Assembly: GCA_033764315.1 (NCBI GenBank)
Contig: JANRJA010000130.1
Span: 1 to 55,551, forward strand
Source: Oculatellaceae cyanobacterium bins.114
GTDB taxonomy: Bacteria; Cyanobacteriota; Cyanobacteriia; Elainellales; Elainellaceae
Length of the DNA stretch: 55,551 bases
Reading direction: 5' to 3'
Position 1 is the first letter of the stretch. The number at the start of each line of letters is the position of its first letter. This document shows positions 32,145-39,333 of the stretch, piece after piece. Made by a program: the position numbers and the translations under genes. A model generated the notes under the pieces. The model ran no database searches, was not told the origin of the DNA, and was given only the letters and a program-made list of their open reading frames with translations.

Positions 32145-33878
32145 ATGAATATCAAACCTCTCATTATTGTTTGTGGCTTAGGTCGCACCGGGCATAAAAT
32201 CTTTTCCCTGCTGAAGCAACAAGGTGCACAAGTTATTGGTGTGCATTCTCATCCTCTTGGCGATCTTCAGGATCAGATGCTTCAGGATCACATCGTCACT
32301 GGGGATTTGCGCTCTGCAACAACACTGATTCAAGCTGGCATTGCCGATGCTCATACCTTAGTGCTGGCAAACAGCGATGATGCCTTGAATTTAGCGATTT
32401 TGACGCAAGCAAGAGTTCTGAACCCTCAAATCCGGATTATCAACCGTCTGTACAATACGAGCCTCGGAAATCGCCTTGATCAGACGCTTCCTAACCATTT
32501 CAGCATGAGTGTTGCTGCCCTCTCAGCCCCTGTGTTTACGTTTGCTGCTATGGGAAATCGGGCAATTGGGCAACTACGTCTGTTTCAACAAACATGGCCG
32601 ATTCACGAAGAATACATCGATGCTCAACATCCCTGGTGGGGCCTCACTCTCACAAACTTGTGGGAAAATCGCGATCGCATGTTGATCTATTACTTACCCA
32701 GCGATGACACTCTGGATTTAGTGTCGGCTGTGACTCAAGAACAACCTCTGCGGGAAGGCGATCGCCTCATCATTGCGACAAAACCTCACATTCAACAAAA
32801 CCGTCGCTCCCTCTTGCAGGCAATCTTGGGACTACTCACTCGCCTGCGGCAATTTCAACGGCATGTGCGTCCAACCCTGGTCATGCTGCTGGTGTTAACA
32901 GTCACGATCGTATCAGCAACCCTAACCTACACCGCCGCAAACTTTCATGTCTCTCTCGTCGATGCCCTTTATTTCGCGGTTGGTATGATCACGGGTGCTG
33001 GAGGCAATGAAAGCATTGCAGAAAAAGCTCCTGTTGAGATCAAAGTTTTCACCGTCATCATGATGTTGATTGGCACAGCTGTTATTGGAATTTGCTATGC
33101 CTTGCTCAACGATCTTATTTTAGGAACTCGTTTACAACAGCTCTGGCAAACCTTTCCCATTCCGCATCGACATCACTACATTATTTGCGGATTAGGTGGC
33201 GTAGGAATGCAGGTTGTGCATCAACTGCATGCAAATGGATGCAGTGTTATTGTCATTGAAACTGATCCTAACAATCGCTTTTTAACAGCTATTCATGCCT
33301 TAAAGATTCCAGTATTGCAAAGCGATGCCAGTTTGCCTGAAACACTGCTCAAAGCTCACATCAAACAAGCCGAAGCCCTGTTAGCGGTTACCAGTGACGA
33401 TGTGACCAACTTAGAGATCGCCTTGACCGCTAAAGGATTAGCTCCAAACATTTCCGTAGTCGTTCGCAATCAAGACCCACAATTTGCACCTCTGGCACAA
33501 CAGGTGTTCGATTTTGAAGCCGTTTTGAGTCCAGCAGAACTAGCCGCCCCGTCATTTGCTGCTGCGGCTCTAGGTGGACAAGTATTTGGCAACGGAATGA
33601 CAGCTAATACTCTGTGGGTTGCTCTGGCTACGATGATTACGTCAGGTCATCCGTTTTATGGCAAACCAGTCAAAGATATTGCGATCGCCACTGACTTAGT
33701 GCCGTTGTATTTAGAAACCAACCAGCGCACTATACATGGGTGGGAGCTTTTAGAAGCCACCTTGAACATGGGCGATGTCCTCTATCTCACCATACCTGCG
33801 GCTCATTTAGAACAACTTTGGAGAGCCAGTCCTCATCCCCTCTCTATGTCACCTGCTGCGGCCCGACCCATCTTTTAG
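32145..33878 (+). CDS. TrkA/RCK-domain potassium channel family protein
   Basis: Two Rossmann motifs (VCGLGRTG, ICGLGGVG) flanking a two-TM pore region (DALYFAVGMITGAGG, non-canonical filter). Confidence 0.88.
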   Translation: MNIKPLIIVCGLGRTGHKIFSLLKQQGAQVIGVHSHPLGDLQDQMLQDHIVTGDLRSATTLIQAGIADAHTLVLANSDDALNLAILTQARVLNPQIRIINRLYNTSLGNRLDQTLPNHFSMSVAALSAPVFTFAAMGNRAIGQLRLFQQTWPIHEEYIDAQHPWWGLTLTNLWENRDRMLIYYLPSDDTLDLVSAVTQEQPLREGDRLIIATKPHIQQNRRSLLQAILGLLTRLRQFQRHVRPTLVMLLVLTVTIVSATLTYTAANFHVSLVDALYFAVGMITGAGGNESIAEKAPVEIKVFTVIMMLIGTAVIGICYALLNDLILGTRLQQLWQTFPIPHRHHYIICGLGGVGMQVVHQLHANGCSVIVIETDPNNRFLTAIHALKIPVLQSDASLPETLLKAHIKQAEALLAVTSDDVTNLEIALTAKGLAPNISVVVRNQDPQFAPLAQQVFDFEAVLSPAELAAPSFAAAALGGQVFGNGMTANTLWVALATMITSGHPFYGKPVKDIAIATDLVPLYLETNQRTIHGWELLEATLNMGDVLYLTIPAAHLEQLWRASPHPLSMSPAAARPIF

Positions 33879-33880
33879 GC

Positions 33881-34110
33881 TTGGCGACTGAAATCGCAGA
33901 CTTCGGTGTGAGCCTCTGCGGGTTGCAGCAAACTTTGATCCATCTAATTCGCGGCGAAGCTCAGTCGAGCCGTCGAGGCGCAAACTTCGATTGGATAGAC
34001 ATGAATTCAATTCGGTAGCTACAGCACGAAATATAGCCGTAGTGGAACCCCTGGCTGGGAGCACCGCCCCCCACCCCCCCTATGTCCTAAGTTAGCTGGC
34101 CACAGCCATA
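33881..34110. repeat. Composite of short palindromic and MITE-like repeats
   Basis: GCGACTGAAATCGC hairpin; 34003-34030 resembles 47613-47640; TATAGCCGTAG..CCACAGCCATA element at 34032-34110. Confidence 0.6.
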
Positions 34111-34680
34111 CCATGATTTTTTCCAGTTGACTCTAGAGAATTCACGGATTATTCTTTCAAGCCAACTTAAGTGATTTAATCGTCAATCAATCTCTTAGCC
34201 TCATCTTTTCTCAGAGATTGTACTGAGGTTTTTAAACCTTTGATTCACATTTCTATAAATTAAAACCAAGTCGTTTGTTTGGATTCAGTCATCTTGTTTT
34301 ACTTAAAGACAAAAGCATTAAAGCAACCACTGTCTTATTACTTCATTTAAGTAGATAAACAACAATTGAATTTCTAAACTTAAAAACTCCATTTCAAAAG
34401 GCTTATAACTATTTCCATTTCCTAAAAAGACCTTATTTAAAGAGGGGCGATCGCCATAGACCGTAGATAGAAACTGGGATCTCAAAACTTCTTAATTTTT
34501 GCAAACACAAGTTCAAAGAGATATACACAATCTTGTGTCGGCTTATGTATGCATTTGTAACCTAAATCATTCACTTCTTTCAGAAGACCAGAAGTCAGTA
34601 ATAATCCCATATAAATCTACTAATTTCACTGTTAAAAAAGAGCTAATCGATTAAACCATTACCTATTCAGGAGAGCACTC

Positions 34681-35235
34681 ATGGCACTGGAGCCACGTGA
34701 ATTTTTAGTTCGAGTAGAAACGCGTATTGGGTTTACCAACGAAGATAAATCTATCCTCAAACAAAATGCAGATTGGGGATTACAAGTTGCTCCAGAAATG
34801 GCAGATCATTTTTATGCTTTCTTAGGTCGAGATGCAGAAATGAATGCAATTTTAAACGGCTCAGAAGGTCGTATTCACCGTCTACGAGAAACCTTCATTC
34901 AATGGTTTCATGAAATGTTTACTGGTATGGATGATTGGCAAGATGTTTATGCAAGCCGTCGTTGGCGTATTGGGCTAGTTCATGTGCAAATTGGTATTGG
35001 CCCTCAACACGTTGTACCAGCTATGGCTGTTGTGGTTCATGAAGTTGGTAAACGGCTTCAAGTAGATGGCAAAACAGAGACAGTCAGAGATGCTTTGAGC
35101 AAAATTTGTATGATTGATCTCGCCTTTATTGAGCAAGCCTATGTTGAGGTTTCATCCGCTGCTGTACTGCGCGAAACGGGTTGGACGGAAGGCTTATTCC
35201 GACGATTAATTACGACTGGCGCAGGCACAATGTAA
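34681..35235 (+). CDS. Stand-alone protoglobin / sensor-globin domain protein
   Basis: GFTNED, DHFY (B10 Tyr), RIGLVHVQIG (F8 proximal His), as in HemAT-type sensor globins; AGGAG RBS. Confidence 0.85.
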   Translation: MALEPREFLVRVETRIGFTNEDKSILKQNADWGLQVAPEMADHFYAFLGRDAEMNAILNGSEGRIHRLRETFIQWFHEMFTGMDDWQDVYASRRWRIGLVHVQIGIGPQHVVPAMAVVVHEVGKRLQVDGKTETVRDALSKICMIDLAFIEQAYVEVSSAAVLRETGWTEGLFRRLITTGAGTM

Positions 35236-35302
35236 CCCGCACTACAACTCCACTCCTCTTGTTCTTTTCGACTTATTATTTCAAACTCAAGGAGTTTCAA
35301 CT

Positions 35303-35674
35303 ATGGCTATTAGCACTGAAAAATTAACCCATGTTTTACAGGATTTCGTAACATCAACCAACGATGTTCAAGGTGCGGCAATTGTCACCCCTGATGGCTT
35401 GCCACTTGCAGCTAGTTTGCCAGGTGGCATGGATGAAGAACGGGTCTCTGCTATGTCTGCTGCAATGCTCTCTCTGGGCGAACGCATTGGTAATGAGCTT
35501 GCTAGAGGCGGAGTCGAGCGAATTTATGTTGAAGGTGACAAAGGCTTTGGAATCTTAACCAGTTGTGGTGAAGACGCTGTTTTTCTAGTTCTAGCTAATC
35601 AATCTGCAAAACAAGGCCTTTTGATGTTAGAAATCAAACGTGCTTTATCAGAACTAAAAGCAATCTTGATGTAG
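35303..35674 (+). CDS. Roadblock/LC7-domain protein (MglB-like)
   Basis: AAIVTPDGLPLAASL..ERVSAMSAAMLSLGER..VEGDKG. Confidence 0.9.
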   Translation: MAISTEKLTHVLQDFVTSTNDVQGAAIVTPDGLPLAASLPGGMDEERVSAMSAAMLSLGERIGNELARGGVERIYVEGDKGFGILTSCGEDAVFLVLANQSAKQGLLMLEIKRALSELKAILM

Positions 35675-35779
35675 TTTGATCAGGGAATTTTAAGGAGTTG
35701 GTCTGAGCGATTAAACTCAGCCTATCAATCTAGTAACAGTAAGACTTGATAGAAAACAAGTGTATCTCAATTTTGTATG

Positions 35780-35826
35780 GGTAGTGCGAGCATCTCGTTT
35801 ATCAGCAAGATGCCTGTCCCATTACC
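35780..35826. repeat. REP-like imperfect palindrome
   Basis: GGTAGTG..GCATCT..AGATGC..CATTACC. Confidence 0.5.
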
Positions 35827-35987
35827 TTCGATCAACTTACAACTGTGAGGTACTCCCATAAAGAACTTACAAAAATAAAAATTAATGAGTTCTTTTCAAT
35901 CACTTACGGCTGTTAATAGATTGCCTTTTATCCCTTTTAATTCCCTATCCTTTTCCTTGCCTTTATTTCCTACTGCTTTAACGTTAT

Positions 35988-36533
35988 ATGGAAATCATGC
36001 GACTGGTTGTAACCGGACCTGTAGGAGCTGGAAAATCTACTTTTATTCGTTCAGTAAGTGAGATTGAGGTGGTCGATACCGATCGCCGAGCAACAGACGA
36101 AACCGCCCTTTTAAAGAAGAAAACGACAGTTGCATTTGATTTTGGGCGACTTCAGTTTGGTTCTGATATGGCGTTGCACTTGTATGGTACTCCTGGACAG
36201 TCCCGTTTTGATTTTATGTGGGATATTTTGATTCGCAAGGCCCATGCCTATATTTTGCTAGTTGCGGCTCATCGTCCCCATGAGTTTCGTGATGCCCGTC
36301 GTATTTTGACATTTATGAGGCGGCGATCGCCTGCACCGATGATCATTGGCTTAACCCATGCCGATTGCGAGGGTGCTTGGGATGAAGAAAATGTAGCGAT
36401 CGCGATTGGTCATCTTGACTCTCAACAGCGACCTCTAATTGTTAAAGTGAATGCCACAGAAACAGCTTCAGTGGCACATGCTGTTTTGGCATTAGTACAA
36501 ACCTCCCTCCAAACAAATTGTTTAGTTAGTTGA
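35988..36533 (+). CDS. Small Ras-like GTPase of the MglA/CvnD group
   Basis: G1 GPVGAGKST, G2 TTVAFDFG, G3 GTPGQSRF, degenerate G4 THAD, G5 NAT. Confidence 0.88.
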   Translation: MEIMRLVVTGPVGAGKSTFIRSVSEIEVVDTDRRATDETALLKKKTTVAFDFGRLQFGSDMALHLYGTPGQSRFDFMWDILIRKAHAYILLVAAHRPHEFRDARRILTFMRRRSPAPMIIGLTHADCEGAWDEENVAIAIGHLDSQQRPLIVKVNATETASVAHAVLALVQTSLQTNCLVS

Positions 36534-36652
36534 ATCTGTTAGAAGTACTACCCTTCACAGATAAATGAATTTTGTGTGTTGGTTTCTCACCCATAACCAA
36601 TCAATCCTACTTAGCTAGGAAGGCACAAACTGAGTCAGCAGAGGCAAAGGAT

Positions 36653-37513
36653 ATGGCAATCACAGGGTATTTAACGGAATTTTCACTGGCAGAGATTTTT
36701 CAATTGCTGGAGCAAGGCCGCAAAACTGGACTGTTAGGTATTTCTAAACTTTCAGAAGCAAAAGAGGAAAGCAGAAATCACTATATTTGGTTTAGCCAAG
36801 GGCGCATTGTTGGAGCAGCACAAACCCTCGACCATCAAGGGTTAATTGGTCTGATTAGCCAACGAGGTTGGTTAGGCGATCGCGCTGCTTTTAAGCTGGC
36901 ACAAAGTTGCAAACTTGATACACCCATTGGGTTGTGTCTCAAATCGCAAGGGGTGTTACAAGCTGAACAACTCAAGCTGCTGTTTTATACCCAGGTCATG
37001 CGACAGGTCTGTGCCCTTTTTGAACTAAAAGATGGCTGGTTTCAATTTGATGGCAAAGCTCCACTCCCCCCTTCTGAAATGACGGGACTGAGTGCTCCTG
37101 CGACAGAAGTAACTTTGGCAGGCTTACGAGCTCTTAAAGACTGGAGCGCATTGAAAGACAAACTGCCTGACCCCGCTTCTAGCATTATCAGCGTTGTCGA
37201 TGGCAAGCCCGATTTAAAGCTCAATCAACTGGAGTGGCAGGTGTGGGAATTCACAAATGGCACCTTGCCCCTAAAGGCGATCGCTCAGCAAATGCGTCTA
37301 ACTATCGAGCAACTGCAACACATTGCCTTTCGGTTGATGGTGGTTGGGCTAATAGAAGAACTTCCCATCTTAGATTCCGTCACTGCTCCTCAGCCGACAG
37401 AATTGTTATTTCCCAGCGAACCCTCTGCGATCGCCACTGAAACCTCTGACGCTTCAAAAGTCAGCCAAACATTTCTACAAAACCTGGTTGGTTTTCTCAA
37501 AGGCAAAATGTAA
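36653..37513 (+). CDS. DUF4388 / PATAN-domain protein
   Basis: GYLTEFSLAEIFQLLEQGRKTGLL..IWFSQGRIVGA..FELKDGWFQF and a C-terminal HTH-like segment; start moved to ATG 36653. Confidence 0.85.
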   Translation: MAITGYLTEFSLAEIFQLLEQGRKTGLLGISKLSEAKEESRNHYIWFSQGRIVGAAQTLDHQGLIGLISQRGWLGDRAAFKLAQSCKLDTPIGLCLKSQGVLQAEQLKLLFYTQVMRQVCALFELKDGWFQFDGKAPLPPSEMTGLSAPATEVTLAGLRALKDWSALKDKLPDPASSIISVVDGKPDLKLNQLEWQVWEFTNGTLPLKAIAQQMRLTIEQLQHIAFRLMVVGLIEELPILDSVTAPQPTELLFPSEPSAIATETSDASKVSQTFLQNLVGFLKGKM

Positions 37514-37539
37514 AACGCCCGGAGCGAAGGAGAGAGGTT

Positions 37540-37728
37540 ATGGCCTTGTTTTTAGGAATATTAGAATTTTTAGAGTTTGTGGGAACTCCCTTAGGGTTGG
37601 CAACCAGCCTTTGGATCAGCTTCTACTATTTTGCTGAGCAAACTCTAGGGTTTGATCTATGGTTGGCCGCACTACTACCTGGAGTTTTAGCCGTCGATCT
37701 ATATTTTTATCTCAAACAAATCGATTAA
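37540..37728 (+). CDS. Small membrane protein (hypothetical)
   Basis: 62 aa, hydrophobic; strong AAGGAGAGAGG RBS; 26 nt after the DUF4388 stop. Confidence 0.65.
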   Translation: MALFLGILEFLEFVGTPLGLATSLWISFYYFAEQTLGFDLWLAALLPGVLAVDLYFYLKQID

Positions 37729-37758
37729 AGTCGGTTCTTGTGCGGACCTATACGATGG

Positions 37759-37788
37759 GTGGAGAGGCCGTTAAAACGACCCCTCCAC
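37759..37788. terminator. Hairpin between convergent genes
   Basis: GTGGAG..CGTT-AA-AACG..CTCCAC. Confidence 0.5.
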
Positions 37789-37822
37789 TTAAGAAGCTCC
37801 TGACACAAATCACCCTTCAAAG

Positions 37823-39004
37823 CTAGTGGTGATGATGGTGATCCCCGTGATGGTGATCGTCATGGTGGTGGTGATCGCCATGATGGTGGTCATGGGAATG
37901 AGCTTGTGAAGCTGCAAGGGTAGGATTGACAGCTAAAGCCTGTTCAGTCAACAAATCAGCAATCAAAGGATTTGCCCACTCTGCCGCCATCTTTAAGAAC
38001 TCTGGCCGATCATTAACACAGGGCATTTGCACATAGGTCACATCAGGACGTTGGCGACGTAGATCGTGAATGATGTGATCGACATCTAGTAGCGTCTCGT
38101 GATTTTCAGTGGCAAACCCAATGGGCATAAACACGATTGCGGTTGCTCCCAACTCCATCAAGTTTCGGGCAGCTAAGTCTGCATTGGGCTGAGTCCATTC
38201 GATCAGAGGAGTTTGGTGGTTCAACCAACCCACAGAGATCAGGGGATAGCGATGGATCAACCGCTCCCGAACTCGCTCATAGAGTGCTTGACTTTCGTCA
38301 ATGCCAGAGGTGAAGCCTTTTGCCTTGTGAGGGCAACCGTGATTCATCAACACAATGCCCGTTTGAGAGGGCAAATGAGCGACTTCTAGATAGGCTTTGA
38401 TTTTCTCTTCAACCATTTGAGCCATTAGATTGATGTAATCAGGCTCATTGTAGAAAGAGGGAATATAACGCATCCCTTTGACCCAATGCTCAGCACCATC
38501 ACTCAAGTGGGCTAGAGCTTTGTTAACCTGTTCAACCGCAATGCCGCTAGTAAAGATTGAGTCTACGACTAACAGAGGATAGATGAGAATCTTGCTAAAC
38601 CCCTGAGCTTTGATCTCAGTCAAAACCTGTTCTGGCAGAAAAGGAGCACAGAAGTTAAATGCTTTGAAAACTTGAATGCGATCGCCCCATTGAGCTTTAA
38701 GGTGCTGTTCAATTCCAACCCTTTGTTGCTCAAAAATTGCATTATGAGGCGAAATAAAGTGATTGTGTTGATGGCTCCACTCATGCAGATCAAAAACTGC
38801 CAATAACTTCGCCAGTGGCGGATAAATCCAGGTTGGGACAGGAGCAAACTTAGCCGTTAACAGATTTAGAGCTTGTTCGTTGTAATTGGCAAAGTCTTCA
38901 TAGCTCTCGACTTCCCCATACCCCATCAATAAAACAGCGACCCGCTCAGTGGGGGAACCCTGATTAGAAACCTGCTGTTGCAGTTTTTCGGGAGTAGCAA
39001 CCAC
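37823..39004 (-). CDS. hemH: Ferrochelatase-family chelatase with His-rich tail and no CAB domain
   Basis: VAVLLMGYG, ISPHN, MNHGCP, W..P, PIGFATENHETL; GTG 39004 preceded by GAGGTG. Confidence 0.8.
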   Translation of the reverse strand: MVATPEKLQQQVSNQGSPTERVAVLLMGYGEVESYEDFANYNEQALNLLTAKFAPVPTWIYPPLAKLLAVFDLHEWSHQHNHFISPHNAIFEQQRVGIEQHLKAQWGDRIQVFKAFNFCAPFLPEQVLTEIKAQGFSKILIYPLLVVDSIFTSGIAVEQVNKALAHLSDGAEHWVKGMRYIPSFYNEPDYINLMAQMVEEKIKAYLEVAHLPSQTGIVLMNHGCPHKAKGFTSGIDESQALYERVRERLIHRYPLISVGWLNHQTPLIEWTQPNADLAARNLMELGATAIVFMPIGFATENHETLLDVDHIIHDLRRQRPDVTYVQMPCVNDRPEFLKMAAEWANPLIADLLTEQALAVNPTLAASQAHSHDHHHGDHHHHDDHHHGDHHHHH

Positions 39005-39333
39005 GCTAATCACCTCAATGAATAAAGTTCTTGAATGCAATTGATAACAAACCCAGCAAAACCACCGTATCCCATAGCTTCGGTCAAGACTGTAGAGCCG
39101 ATTTTCACTTAAAGCCCTGTTTGAGCGTGGATTTCAAGTGCTCCATTGGCTGAACCGTCAGGACAACTGCTAGGGTTACACGTTTGCTGTGCGTTGATTC
39201 TTCTTAGGGTAGCATCCCCCCAATGGGGATGTGTAAACGAATTAAAGAATCTATGAAAGGGAGTATGCCAAAAGTGAAGAGATTATCGGCGAAATCAACG
39301 GGAAGTCTTTTGATTTCAAACGATCGCCCCTGC

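Follow-up and report, generated by a model that had tools for sequence, protein, structure and literature searches.

What does a haem globin that lacks an output domain report to, when it is encoded beside a small G-protein switch? The question is raised by a contig of Oculatellaceae cyanobacterium bins.114 (GenBank assembly GCA_033764315.1, contig JANRJA010000130.1; the whole stretch of 55,551 nucleotides that we analysed is henceforth called the window), in which five co-oriented open reading frames (ORFs) on the + strand, all within positions 34681-37728, encode a protoglobin, a Roadblock/LC7 protein, an MglA-like small GTPase, a protein with a PATAN (DUF4388) domain and a hydrophobic protein of 62 residues (Table 1). 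An initial annotation, made from the letters of the DNA, had described five such genes behind an AT-rich region of about 570 nt, and the ORF listing places all five as described, behind an AT-rich spacer that comes to about 575 nt. It had also seen neither a kinase nor a receiver domain among them, and Pfam likewise found none in the five genes, with NCBIfam adding only a sub-threshold small_GTP match. We give an even chance to the reading that the five genes form a signalling operon built around the Roadblock/MglA-like GTPase switch, with the stand-alone haem globin as its input sensor.

The evidence that carries this reading is the company that the globin keeps in other genomes. A scan of one genome per species yielded 300 relatives of the globin, of which we compared the loci of the best 80 (71-78% identity), making 81 loci with the window; genes were called crudely and clustered, and short contigs were included as they are. 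By title, these 80 relatives are cyanobacterial, apart from a few metagenome-assembled genomes (MAGs) and one that bears the label Sericytochromatia. Of the 81 loci, 75 have a Roadblock gene, 67 the GTPase gene, 48 the DUF4388 gene and 32 a gene for a 161-aa V4R-like protein (cluster c4); genes for a hemerythrin (9/81) and an NB-ARC/TPR protein (8/81) are less common. The module genes lie on the same strand in every one of the 81 loci, despite at least six recurrent gene orders. With GLB, ROBL, GTP, D4388 and V4Rl denoting the globin, Roadblock, GTPase, DUF4388 and V4R-like genes, the commonest architectures are GLB-ROBL-GTP-D4388 (20 loci, the window among them), V4Rl-ROBL-GTP-D4388-GLB (5 loci), D4388-ROBL-GLB-GTP-ROBL-V4Rl (5 loci) and D4388-GTP-ROBL-(V4Rl)-GLB. 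When we asked which module gene lies nearest to each of the 84 globin genes in these loci, the answer was a Roadblock gene for 58 (median gap 81 nt), and a V4R-like gene for 9, a DUF4388 gene for 7, a GTPase gene for 4 and another globin gene for 2 of the remainder.

The same association was found across the phylum. Among 401 sampled genomes, the globin occurs in 33, the GTPase in 39 and both in 30, every pair lying within about 3 kb; these counts are descriptive, because related genomes are not independent. Furthermore, globin sub-clusters track module architecture, even within one MAG (type I at locus L028 and type II at L029; likewise L018 and L067), and identities among the globins correlate with those among the adjacent Roadblock proteins (Mantel r 0.58, a value reached by 0 of 2000 permutations). 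The initial annotation had set co-conservation of the genes as a check on its own reading. Indeed, this gene set is found again beside the globin in dozens of genomes, which is more than chance.

Not all modules are built alike. The type II modules (L013, L014, L029, L038, L043, L063, L067, L074, L076 and L078) have no PATAN gene; they carry two or three tandem Roadblock-GTPase pairs and a V4R-like gene, often with an NB-ARC/TPR (STAND) protein of 520-730 aa encoded directly downstream, and represent a different output architecture for the same globin. One module copy, in genome G314, appears to be decaying: its globin gene and the nearby GTPase copy have in-frame TAA stops, and a second GTPase copy has two.

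As to the globin, Protoglobin (PF11563; 71.3 bits against a cut-off of 25) is its sole domain, and its best match in the PDB, over the full length, is 8H17, the 'Tlr1989 protein' (E 2.8e-80), followed by the AfGcHK globin 5OHE (7.6e-14) and then by the globin domains of GsGCS and HemAT. Tyr45 and His101 are invariant in 56/56 sequences, as is Cys143 in the same alignment, and the first two align to the residues of the AfGcHK globin (5OHE) that we take to be B10 and F8. Tyr-B10 together with His-F8 is the pocket type of the O2-binding globin-coupled sensors (GCS). By these features of its sequence, the protein is assigned to the sensor (S)-family protoglobins of GCS type, and its haem pocket is predicted from the conserved residues to be intact. 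Since the globin is the only domain and has no fused transmitter, it is a single-domain sensor globin, not a GCS proper; our search for longer fused relatives returned none at E up to 1e-5, which is weak evidence. The F8 His, the B10 Tyr and the missing output domain had all been noted in the first reading of the locus, and all were found again here. A tail of 28 residues (157-184) extends beyond the Pfam match and is conserved at 90% or more in 19 positions. We also considered and set aside photoglobin, a non-haem globin whose family differs from protoglobin and whose paper mentions no Roadblock protein or GTPase.

The two genes that follow encode the components of the putative switch. The profile of the Roadblock protein matches PDB entries 7F8M (2.6e-29), 9JUE (3.6e-25) and Streptomyces cvnB5, 3LEQ (4.4e-13). 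The GTPase matches Ras and Roc above cut-off in addition to ATP_bind_1, and has a P-loop GPVGAGKS, TT in switch I (KKTTVAFDFG), G3 GTPGQ and G4 LTHAD; the TTVAFDFG and GTPGQ stretches and the atypical THAD had been picked out initially, and all three are in the sequence. In an alignment of 57 sequences, G10, G13, G15, K16, T46, T47 and the G67-T-P-G-Q71 stretch are invariant, and T123, H124 and D126 of the G4 T-H-x-D are each at least 90% conserved. A profile of the family matches Arf/Ras proteins at about 1e-10, with THxD aligned to NKQD of Arf1; the single sequence gave no meaningful PDB match. MglA groups 2-5, of which group 5 occurs in cyanobacteria, are defined by TT in G2 and GTPGQ in G3 (PMC4316618), and by these criteria of Wuichet and Sogaard-Andersen the GTPase falls into groups 2-5. 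Its gene also has the MglB-type (Robl_LC7) neighbour to which genes of these groups are coupled, as do those in the Roadblock-bearing loci counted above. In place of the group 1 hallmarks, an intrinsic arginine finger by the G2 Thr and TVPGQ in G3, it has TT and GTPGQ, and in place of the canonical G4 [NT]KxD it has THAD, in which the Asp is retained, so that guanine specificity is plausible.

The PATAN protein is the candidate output of the switch. Its longest ORF (36572-37513, 313 aa) begins with TTG, but conservation begins at ATG 36653, where a Met is aligned in 44/44 relatives, and this start (286 aa) is therefore the most likely. The protein matches DUF4388 (PF14332) at E 8e-29 and 100.6 bits against a cut-off of 25, and all 44 relatives match it too. 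In the AlphaFold2 model (pLDDT 83.9, pTM 0.73), the PATAN domain leads into a strand-helix-helix-helix-strand unit (residues 177-237); beyond a disordered linker (242-270), the chain closes with a terminal helix that is conserved (272-284). VIA-align superposed residues 166-244 on winged-helix domains, best on the GATOR1 chain 8FW5_B (Z 9.3 over 73 residues, root-mean-square deviation 2.7) and then on the SEA chain 8ADL_S (Z 8.8), with dozens of MarR/ArsR/AsnC regulators at Z of about 6; a winged helix is therefore predicted for the C-terminal domain (about residues 166-240). The PATAN domain had no structural match among the VIA-align matches listed, Foldseek with the whole model gave nothing at E up to 0.001, a PDB sequence search with the protein gave nothing meaningful, and the protein atlas offered for the C-terminal part leads only, including one PatA_N/HTH_24 cluster at 0.86. 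Sub-threshold Pfam matches among the 44 relatives were to HTH_47 (4), Sigma70_r4 (3), PafC (3) and DUF742 (1, E 0.044), while distant relatives match HTH_36 at 2.6e-4 and MarR_2 at 3.6e-5. Response_reg is not matched by the protein, which has the predicted winged helix in the place of the receiver of PatA-type regulators. As a side observation, the bins.114 genome (6.6 Mb) gave a single DUF4388 match at E up to 0.001, yet four T2SSE-family ATPases; its PatA-type PATAN-receiver (PATAN-REC) regulators may have been missed by the six-frame hidden Markov model search or may be missing from the assembly.

The 62-aa protein has two hydrophobic segments (residues ~1-20 and 36-58) and, on hydropathy, is likely a small membrane protein, with no Pfam family and no named protein-atlas cluster. 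Its relatives were found by tblastn at E 1e-7 to 1e-20, and in 22 of the 24 loci with the type I operon a homologue is encoded directly 3' of the DUF4388 gene. It had been put forward initially as a membrane anchor: the gene is real, conserved and hydrophobic, whereas anchoring is a speculative role for it.

How might these parts work together? A dimer of the globin would bind a diatomic gas, most likely O2, with NO, CO or a change in haem redox state as alternatives; its fold, the apparently intact pocket and the crystallised orthologue all point this way. The ligand state would be relayed to the Roadblock dimer, consistent with the adjacency of the two genes and with a natural globin-Roadblock fusion, HGbRL (see below), and the conserved tail of the globin might serve as a docking element. 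By homology with MglB acting on MglA and with CvnB in conservons, the Roadblock dimer would set the GTP/GDP state of the GTPase, which in turn would engage the PATAN/winged-helix protein as an adaptor or effector, its PATAN domain being a protein-binding output to judge by its homologues. The 62-aa protein could keep this adaptor at the membrane, and the adaptor could act on a localised machine, for which the type IV pilus motor PilB/PilC is the best candidate because PATAN domains bind PilB/PilC in Synechocystis. Specifically, Han et al. (bioRxiv 10.1101/2021.06.11.447907) show that the PixE PATAN domain binds PilB1 as well as PilC and suffices to reverse phototaxis, and they note that MglA/MglB homologues are often encoded near PATAN genes. 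The same proximity is described for some MglA genes of groups 1 and 5 in PMC4316618, which cites Makarova 2006 and nowhere uses the word 'globin'. In one related locus (L086, 8084-12499), a globin-less module is followed, in the same orientation, by genes for a PATAN-REC protein, CheY, CheW and a multi-GAF protein, the last cut off by the end of the locus, which by their content read as a taxis-type (phototaxis-type chemosensory) operon, a single case. The four T2SSE-family ATPases of the bins.114 genome are a further hint of this kind. We regard an output through the pilus as possible, if doubtful.

Several findings weigh against a globin-gated switch with an output of this kind. For four of the 84 globin genes, the nearest module gene is more than 1.5 kb away or missing, and 33 of the 81 loci have no DUF4388 gene, short contigs being among the loci concerned. 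Given the loci without DUF4388 and the presence of the operon in the unicellular organism of Tlr1989, the aerotactic reversal of filaments that had been suggested initially is too narrow. Three of the 33 globin genomes in the phylum sample have no GTPase match to our query (one of them has a 41-residue globin remnant), and 9 of the 39 GTPase-bearing genomes have no globin, so that the globin is better seen as an optional input than as a core part. Shared ancestry inflates both the Mantel correlation and the counts of co-occurrence. The pilus link is drawn from PATAN-REC proteins of another species and from one taxis operon (1 of about 95 cyanobacterial loci), and a winged helix is compatible with a DNA-binding as well as a protein-binding output. 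Finally, the G4 motif THxD departs from [NT]KxD, so that a preference of the GTPase for guanine is plausible at most.

If the globin is optional, what occupies its place elsewhere? GTPase-only genomes carry globin-less V4Rl-ROBL-GTP-D4388 modules (L086, L087, L088, L090, L091 and L095). The V4R-like c4 protein has four conserved cysteines and gives a weak V4R match in Pfam that does not reach the cut-off (E 0.0017), and its profile found nothing meaningful among PDB sequences; its model (pLDDT 80.7), in contrast, matches in Foldseek the V4R sensor domains of MopR, PoxR and DmpR (E 4e-6 to 1e-5, TM scores 0.66-0.69), as well as TRAPPC3/Bet3 (1.6e-5) and, more weakly, H-NOX (3.9e-4). In locus L096, the ROBL-D4388-GTP genes are preceded by a second protoglobin lineage, 31% identical to the window globin, that retains FY and the proximal His. 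We fetched 32 metagenome loci with relatives of this second globin and inspected nine of the long ones: Pfam found the module (Robl_LC7, DUF4388 and an ATP_bind_1/Ras-like GTPase) in six (L104, L107, L114, L120, L127 and L129), one of which also has V4R at 7.9e-10, and tblastn alone found it in L118, giving 7/9 in total, while it was not found in L101 and L111. A GC content of 66-72% and a near absence of the HIP1 motif suggest that L108, L112, L114, L118 and L119 are of non-cyanobacterial origin. A hemerythrin gene lies 3' of the operon in the nine loci counted above and in L094 and L098. The sensor slot appears to be interchangeable among globin lineages, a V4R/H-NOX-fold protein and an added hemerythrin. 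In the window, tblastn uncovered neither an overlooked V4R-like gene (best E 0.15) nor a hemerythrin gene (best E 0.29), with no match in the spacer between the Roadblock and GTPase genes, and the V4R-like protein was also absent from searches of the bins.114 genome, which is 90.7% complete.

Tentatively, we extend this picture to a proposal that may well prove too broad: the operon would belong to a modular 'receptor-coupled G-protein' system, widespread in prokaryotes, in which swappable stand-alone ligand-binding proteins on a Roadblock dimer gate an MglA-like GTPase that drives a PATAN/winged-helix adaptor at the membrane. If true, this would be a route for gas sensing without phosphorylation, methylation or cyclic nucleotides, and, by its parts list, a bacterial counterpart of Ragulator-Rag-GATOR sensing. 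An interchangeable sensor slot would also permit comparing how different ligands drive the same switch.

A further question is how much of this was known. Tlr1989 of Thermosynechococcus (8H17) is an orthologue of the window globin that heads the same Roadblock/GTPase/DUF4388 operon: the globin of locus L094 is identical to the 8H17 chain letter for letter, and the organism of the crystallised globin hence carries the operon (Protoglobin-Robl-GTPase-DUF4388-Hemerythrin), which differs in ending with a hemerythrin gene and not with that for the small membrane protein. Tlr1989 (8H17) is probably the protein that Mathur et al. (2023, Int J Biol Macromol 240:124471) call a 'single sensor hemoglobin domain', apparently investigated on its own; we found no literature under the name tlr1989. 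In HGbRL of Methylacidiphilum infernorum, a haem globin is likewise coupled to a Roadblock/LC7 domain, and its authors propose that a ligand-driven movement of the globin is relayed to the Roadblock domain; HGbRL is, however, a single polypeptide limited to one genus, its globin is of the HGbI/flavohaemoglobin-like type and not of the sensor (protoglobin) family, and it is not encoded with a GTPase or PATAN gene (PMC4476040).

The switch itself has relatives in better-known systems. MglA/MglB of Myxococcus xanthus and Thermus thermophilus shares with the window a Ras-like GTPase with a PGQ-type G3, a Roadblock-fold regulator and, often, PATAN genes nearby; by contrast, the window GTPase has TT instead of the group 1 intrinsic arginine, GTPGQ and THxD, its input is a globin instead of the Frz chemosensory pathway, and we saw no RomR/RomX. 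The actinobacterial conservons (CvnA-D) also combine a sensor, a Roadblock protein (CvnB), a small winged-helix-type protein (CvnC/DUF742) and a GTPGQ GTPase (CvnD) in one operon. CvnD-type proteins match ATP_bind_1, as does the window GTPase. The window module differs in having a soluble haem globin as sensor and no CvnA histidine kinase (HATPase and HisKA are not matched in the five genes or the flanking genes), in a winged helix fused to PATAN, with the sole DUF742 match among the 44 PATAN proteins being the one given above, and in a G4 of THxD where conservons have NxFD (PMC4316618). Compared with the PatA-type PATAN-REC regulators (PixE, PixG, LsiR and PatA), whose PATAN output domain binds PilB1/PilC, the window protein has a predicted winged helix and a terminal helix but no receiver, and its control would come from the GTPase, not from phosphorylation. 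Lastly, a Roadblock platform, a small GTPase, a V4R/TRAPPC3 fold and a winged-helix regulator recur in Ragulator-Rag-GATOR1, in TRAPP and in the Asgard Roadblock/TRAPPC3/small-GTPase sets (PMC10933270). This is a resemblance of parts, with middling Z scores, and homology of whole systems is not claimed; the Asgard genes, moreover, are mostly not in operons (PMC10933270).

The PATAN-MglB-MglA neighbourhood (Makarova 2006, cited in PMC4316618), the globin::Roadblock fusion HGbRL and the crystal structure of the orthologous globin (8H17) are thus already known. For the combination of globin, Roadblock protein, GTPase and PATAN protein, we found no description in the literature, in a search that left subscription journals largely outside, in line with the statement of the initial annotation that it knew of no characterisation. 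PMC13408092 contains nothing on cyanobacterial modules, and a Fur-regulon paper with the words 'roadblock' and 'GTPase' proved irrelevant to the combination. Taken together, the operon is a real and conserved variant of the Roadblock/small-GTPase module, so far uncharacterised, and its likely input is a haem globin.

Which alternatives have to be weighed? One keeps the globin-Roadblock-GTPase input and changes the output, which would be transcription, through the winged helix, or processes of cell division, differentiation or the envelope, as for PatA and the conservons. The similarity of the winged helix to MarR/ArsR/AsnC regulators and to GATOR1/SEA subunits speaks for such an output, as do the HTH_36 and MarR_2 matches of distant relatives, although HTH matches in the close relatives are sub-threshold and number at most 4/44 for any family, and Han et al. 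dispute a DNA-binding role of PatA-type proteins. In five Nostocaceae loci (L022, L041, L044, L048 and L087), V4Rl-ROBL-GTP-D4388(-GLB) is immediately preceded, on its own strand, by genes for a HisKA_3 kinase and a NarL/LuxR-type regulator, an arrangement reminiscent of the conservon kinase. The PATAN domain of PatA is reported to interact with the divisome (PMC7380572), and conservons regulate development and gyrase (PMC4316618). Beside the operon itself, however, no candidate target genes are conserved, and the flanks vary by lineage. We consider an output of this sort rather unlikely.

Another alternative concerns the signal. The haem could report redox or haem/iron status (Fe(III)/Fe(II), hexacoordination) in place of an external gas, with the module adjusting physiology to the photosynthetic redox state and no tactic response. 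Hemerythrin, a partner of the module in 11 loci, could be a sensor of iron or redox state as well as of O2, Cys143 of the globin is invariant, and oxygenic phototrophs make their own O2, which would render an external gradient a noisy cue. The O2-binding pocket type of the globin argues the other way, and the sequence holds nothing that separates gas from redox sensing; on balance we judge this explanation improbable.

The globin might also be no signal input at all but an enzyme or buffer (an NO dioxygenase, a peroxidase or a store of haem or O2), merely co-expressed with the GTPase module or its client. It has no output domain and no fused forms turned up, a weak argument, and enzymatic activities have been reported for protoglobins, for example nitrite reductase for M. 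acetivorans Pgb (PMC4020757). Yet the sequence places the globin in the sensor (S) family, among characterised proteins it is closest to sensor domains (AfGcHK, GsGCS and HemAT), its slot is taken elsewhere by a V4R/H-NOX-like ligand-sensor fold or by a second globin lineage, and the HGbRL fusion favours direct coupling (PMC4476040). We also rejected a link to haem metabolism through the haem-related neighbours seen in some lineages: the ferrochelatase-like gene next to the window operon has a counterpart in 0/80 related loci, and the ChuX/HutX-like gene of the Nostocales is opposite-strand synteny, on that strand with PhoH, S21 and KH genes, and also stands beside globin-less modules. Overall, we hold a non-signalling role to be quite improbable. 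Anti-phage defence was dismissed, PADLOC having given just one P-loop match at E 0.003.

Should the globin gate the switch as we propose, it would be a haem gas sensor that acts through a small G protein, not through a fused kinase, cyclase or chemoreceptor domain. No function has been assigned to stand-alone sensor globins or to the MglA-like GTPases outside the myxobacteria (groups 2-5), and the operon offers each a testable partner. The system is also tractable: a crystal structure exists for an orthologue (8H17), the operon recurs in the organism of that orthologue, and pilus motility can be followed with established assays in related Thermosynechococcus strains (PMC9090330).

Table 1. Features of the globin operon and its immediate flanks (positions in the window).
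Feature	Position	Strand	Length or composition	Basis
TrkA-N/ion-channel gene (K+ channel-like)	32145-33878	+	577 aa	two TrkA-N domains either side of an Ion_trans_2 segment
AT-rich non-coding leader/promoter region	34105-34680		GC 0.31-0.37	GGAG-type ribosome-binding site
Globin gene	34681-35235	+	184 aa	Pfam Protoglobin 1.2e-19
Roadblock/LC7 (MglB/CvnB-like) gene	35303-35674	+	123 aa	Pfam Robl_LC7 4.8e-19
AT-rich spacer, Roadblock to GTPase	35675-35987		313 nt; GC ~0.36	
Small GTPase gene, MglA group 2-5/CvnD-like	35988-36533	+	181 aa	Pfam ATP_bind_1 3.8e-13
PATAN (DUF4388) gene	36653-37513	+	286 aa	Pfam DUF4388 ~1e-28
Hydrophobic small-protein gene	37540-37728	+	62 aa	hydropathy; no Pfam family
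Ferrochelatase-family gene	37823-39040	-		Pfam 1.5e-39, weak CbiX match

Upstream of the globin gene, positions 33879-34680 are non-coding and AT-rich from about 34105, the leader contrasting in composition with the flanking genes (GC 0.44-0.55); the ribosome-binding site lies 8-12 nt 5' of the globin ATG. Rfam gave zero matches at E up to 1 within 33800-38000. Promoter-like and terminator-like sites were not above shuffled expectation, the leader having a single promoter-like site. The spacer between the Roadblock and GTPase genes contains no ORF of 45 aa or more and possibly holds an internal promoter. In the genome of this organism (6.6 Mb in 251 contigs), the globin, Roadblock, GTPase and DUF4388 genes are all single-copy.

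None of the flanking genes is related to the module. Upstream are genes for the TrkA-N/ion-channel protein, MoaA, ribosomal protein S4 and a PP2C phosphatase; the channel gene adjoins the 5' end of the AT-rich spacer, and a 74%-identical homologue lies upstream of the globin in one related locus only (L005). Downstream, on the opposite strand, are genes for the ferrochelatase-like protein and an aldo-keto reductase. The former protein ends in a long His/Asp-rich tail (HSHDHHHGDHHHHDDHHHGDHHHHH), with which it looks more like a metal (Ni/Co) chelatase or metallochaperone than like canonical cyanobacterial HemH. The window has about 13.7 copies of the HIP1 palindrome (GCGATCGC) per 10 kb, as is typical of cyanobacteria, with one copy in the leader at 34446-34457.

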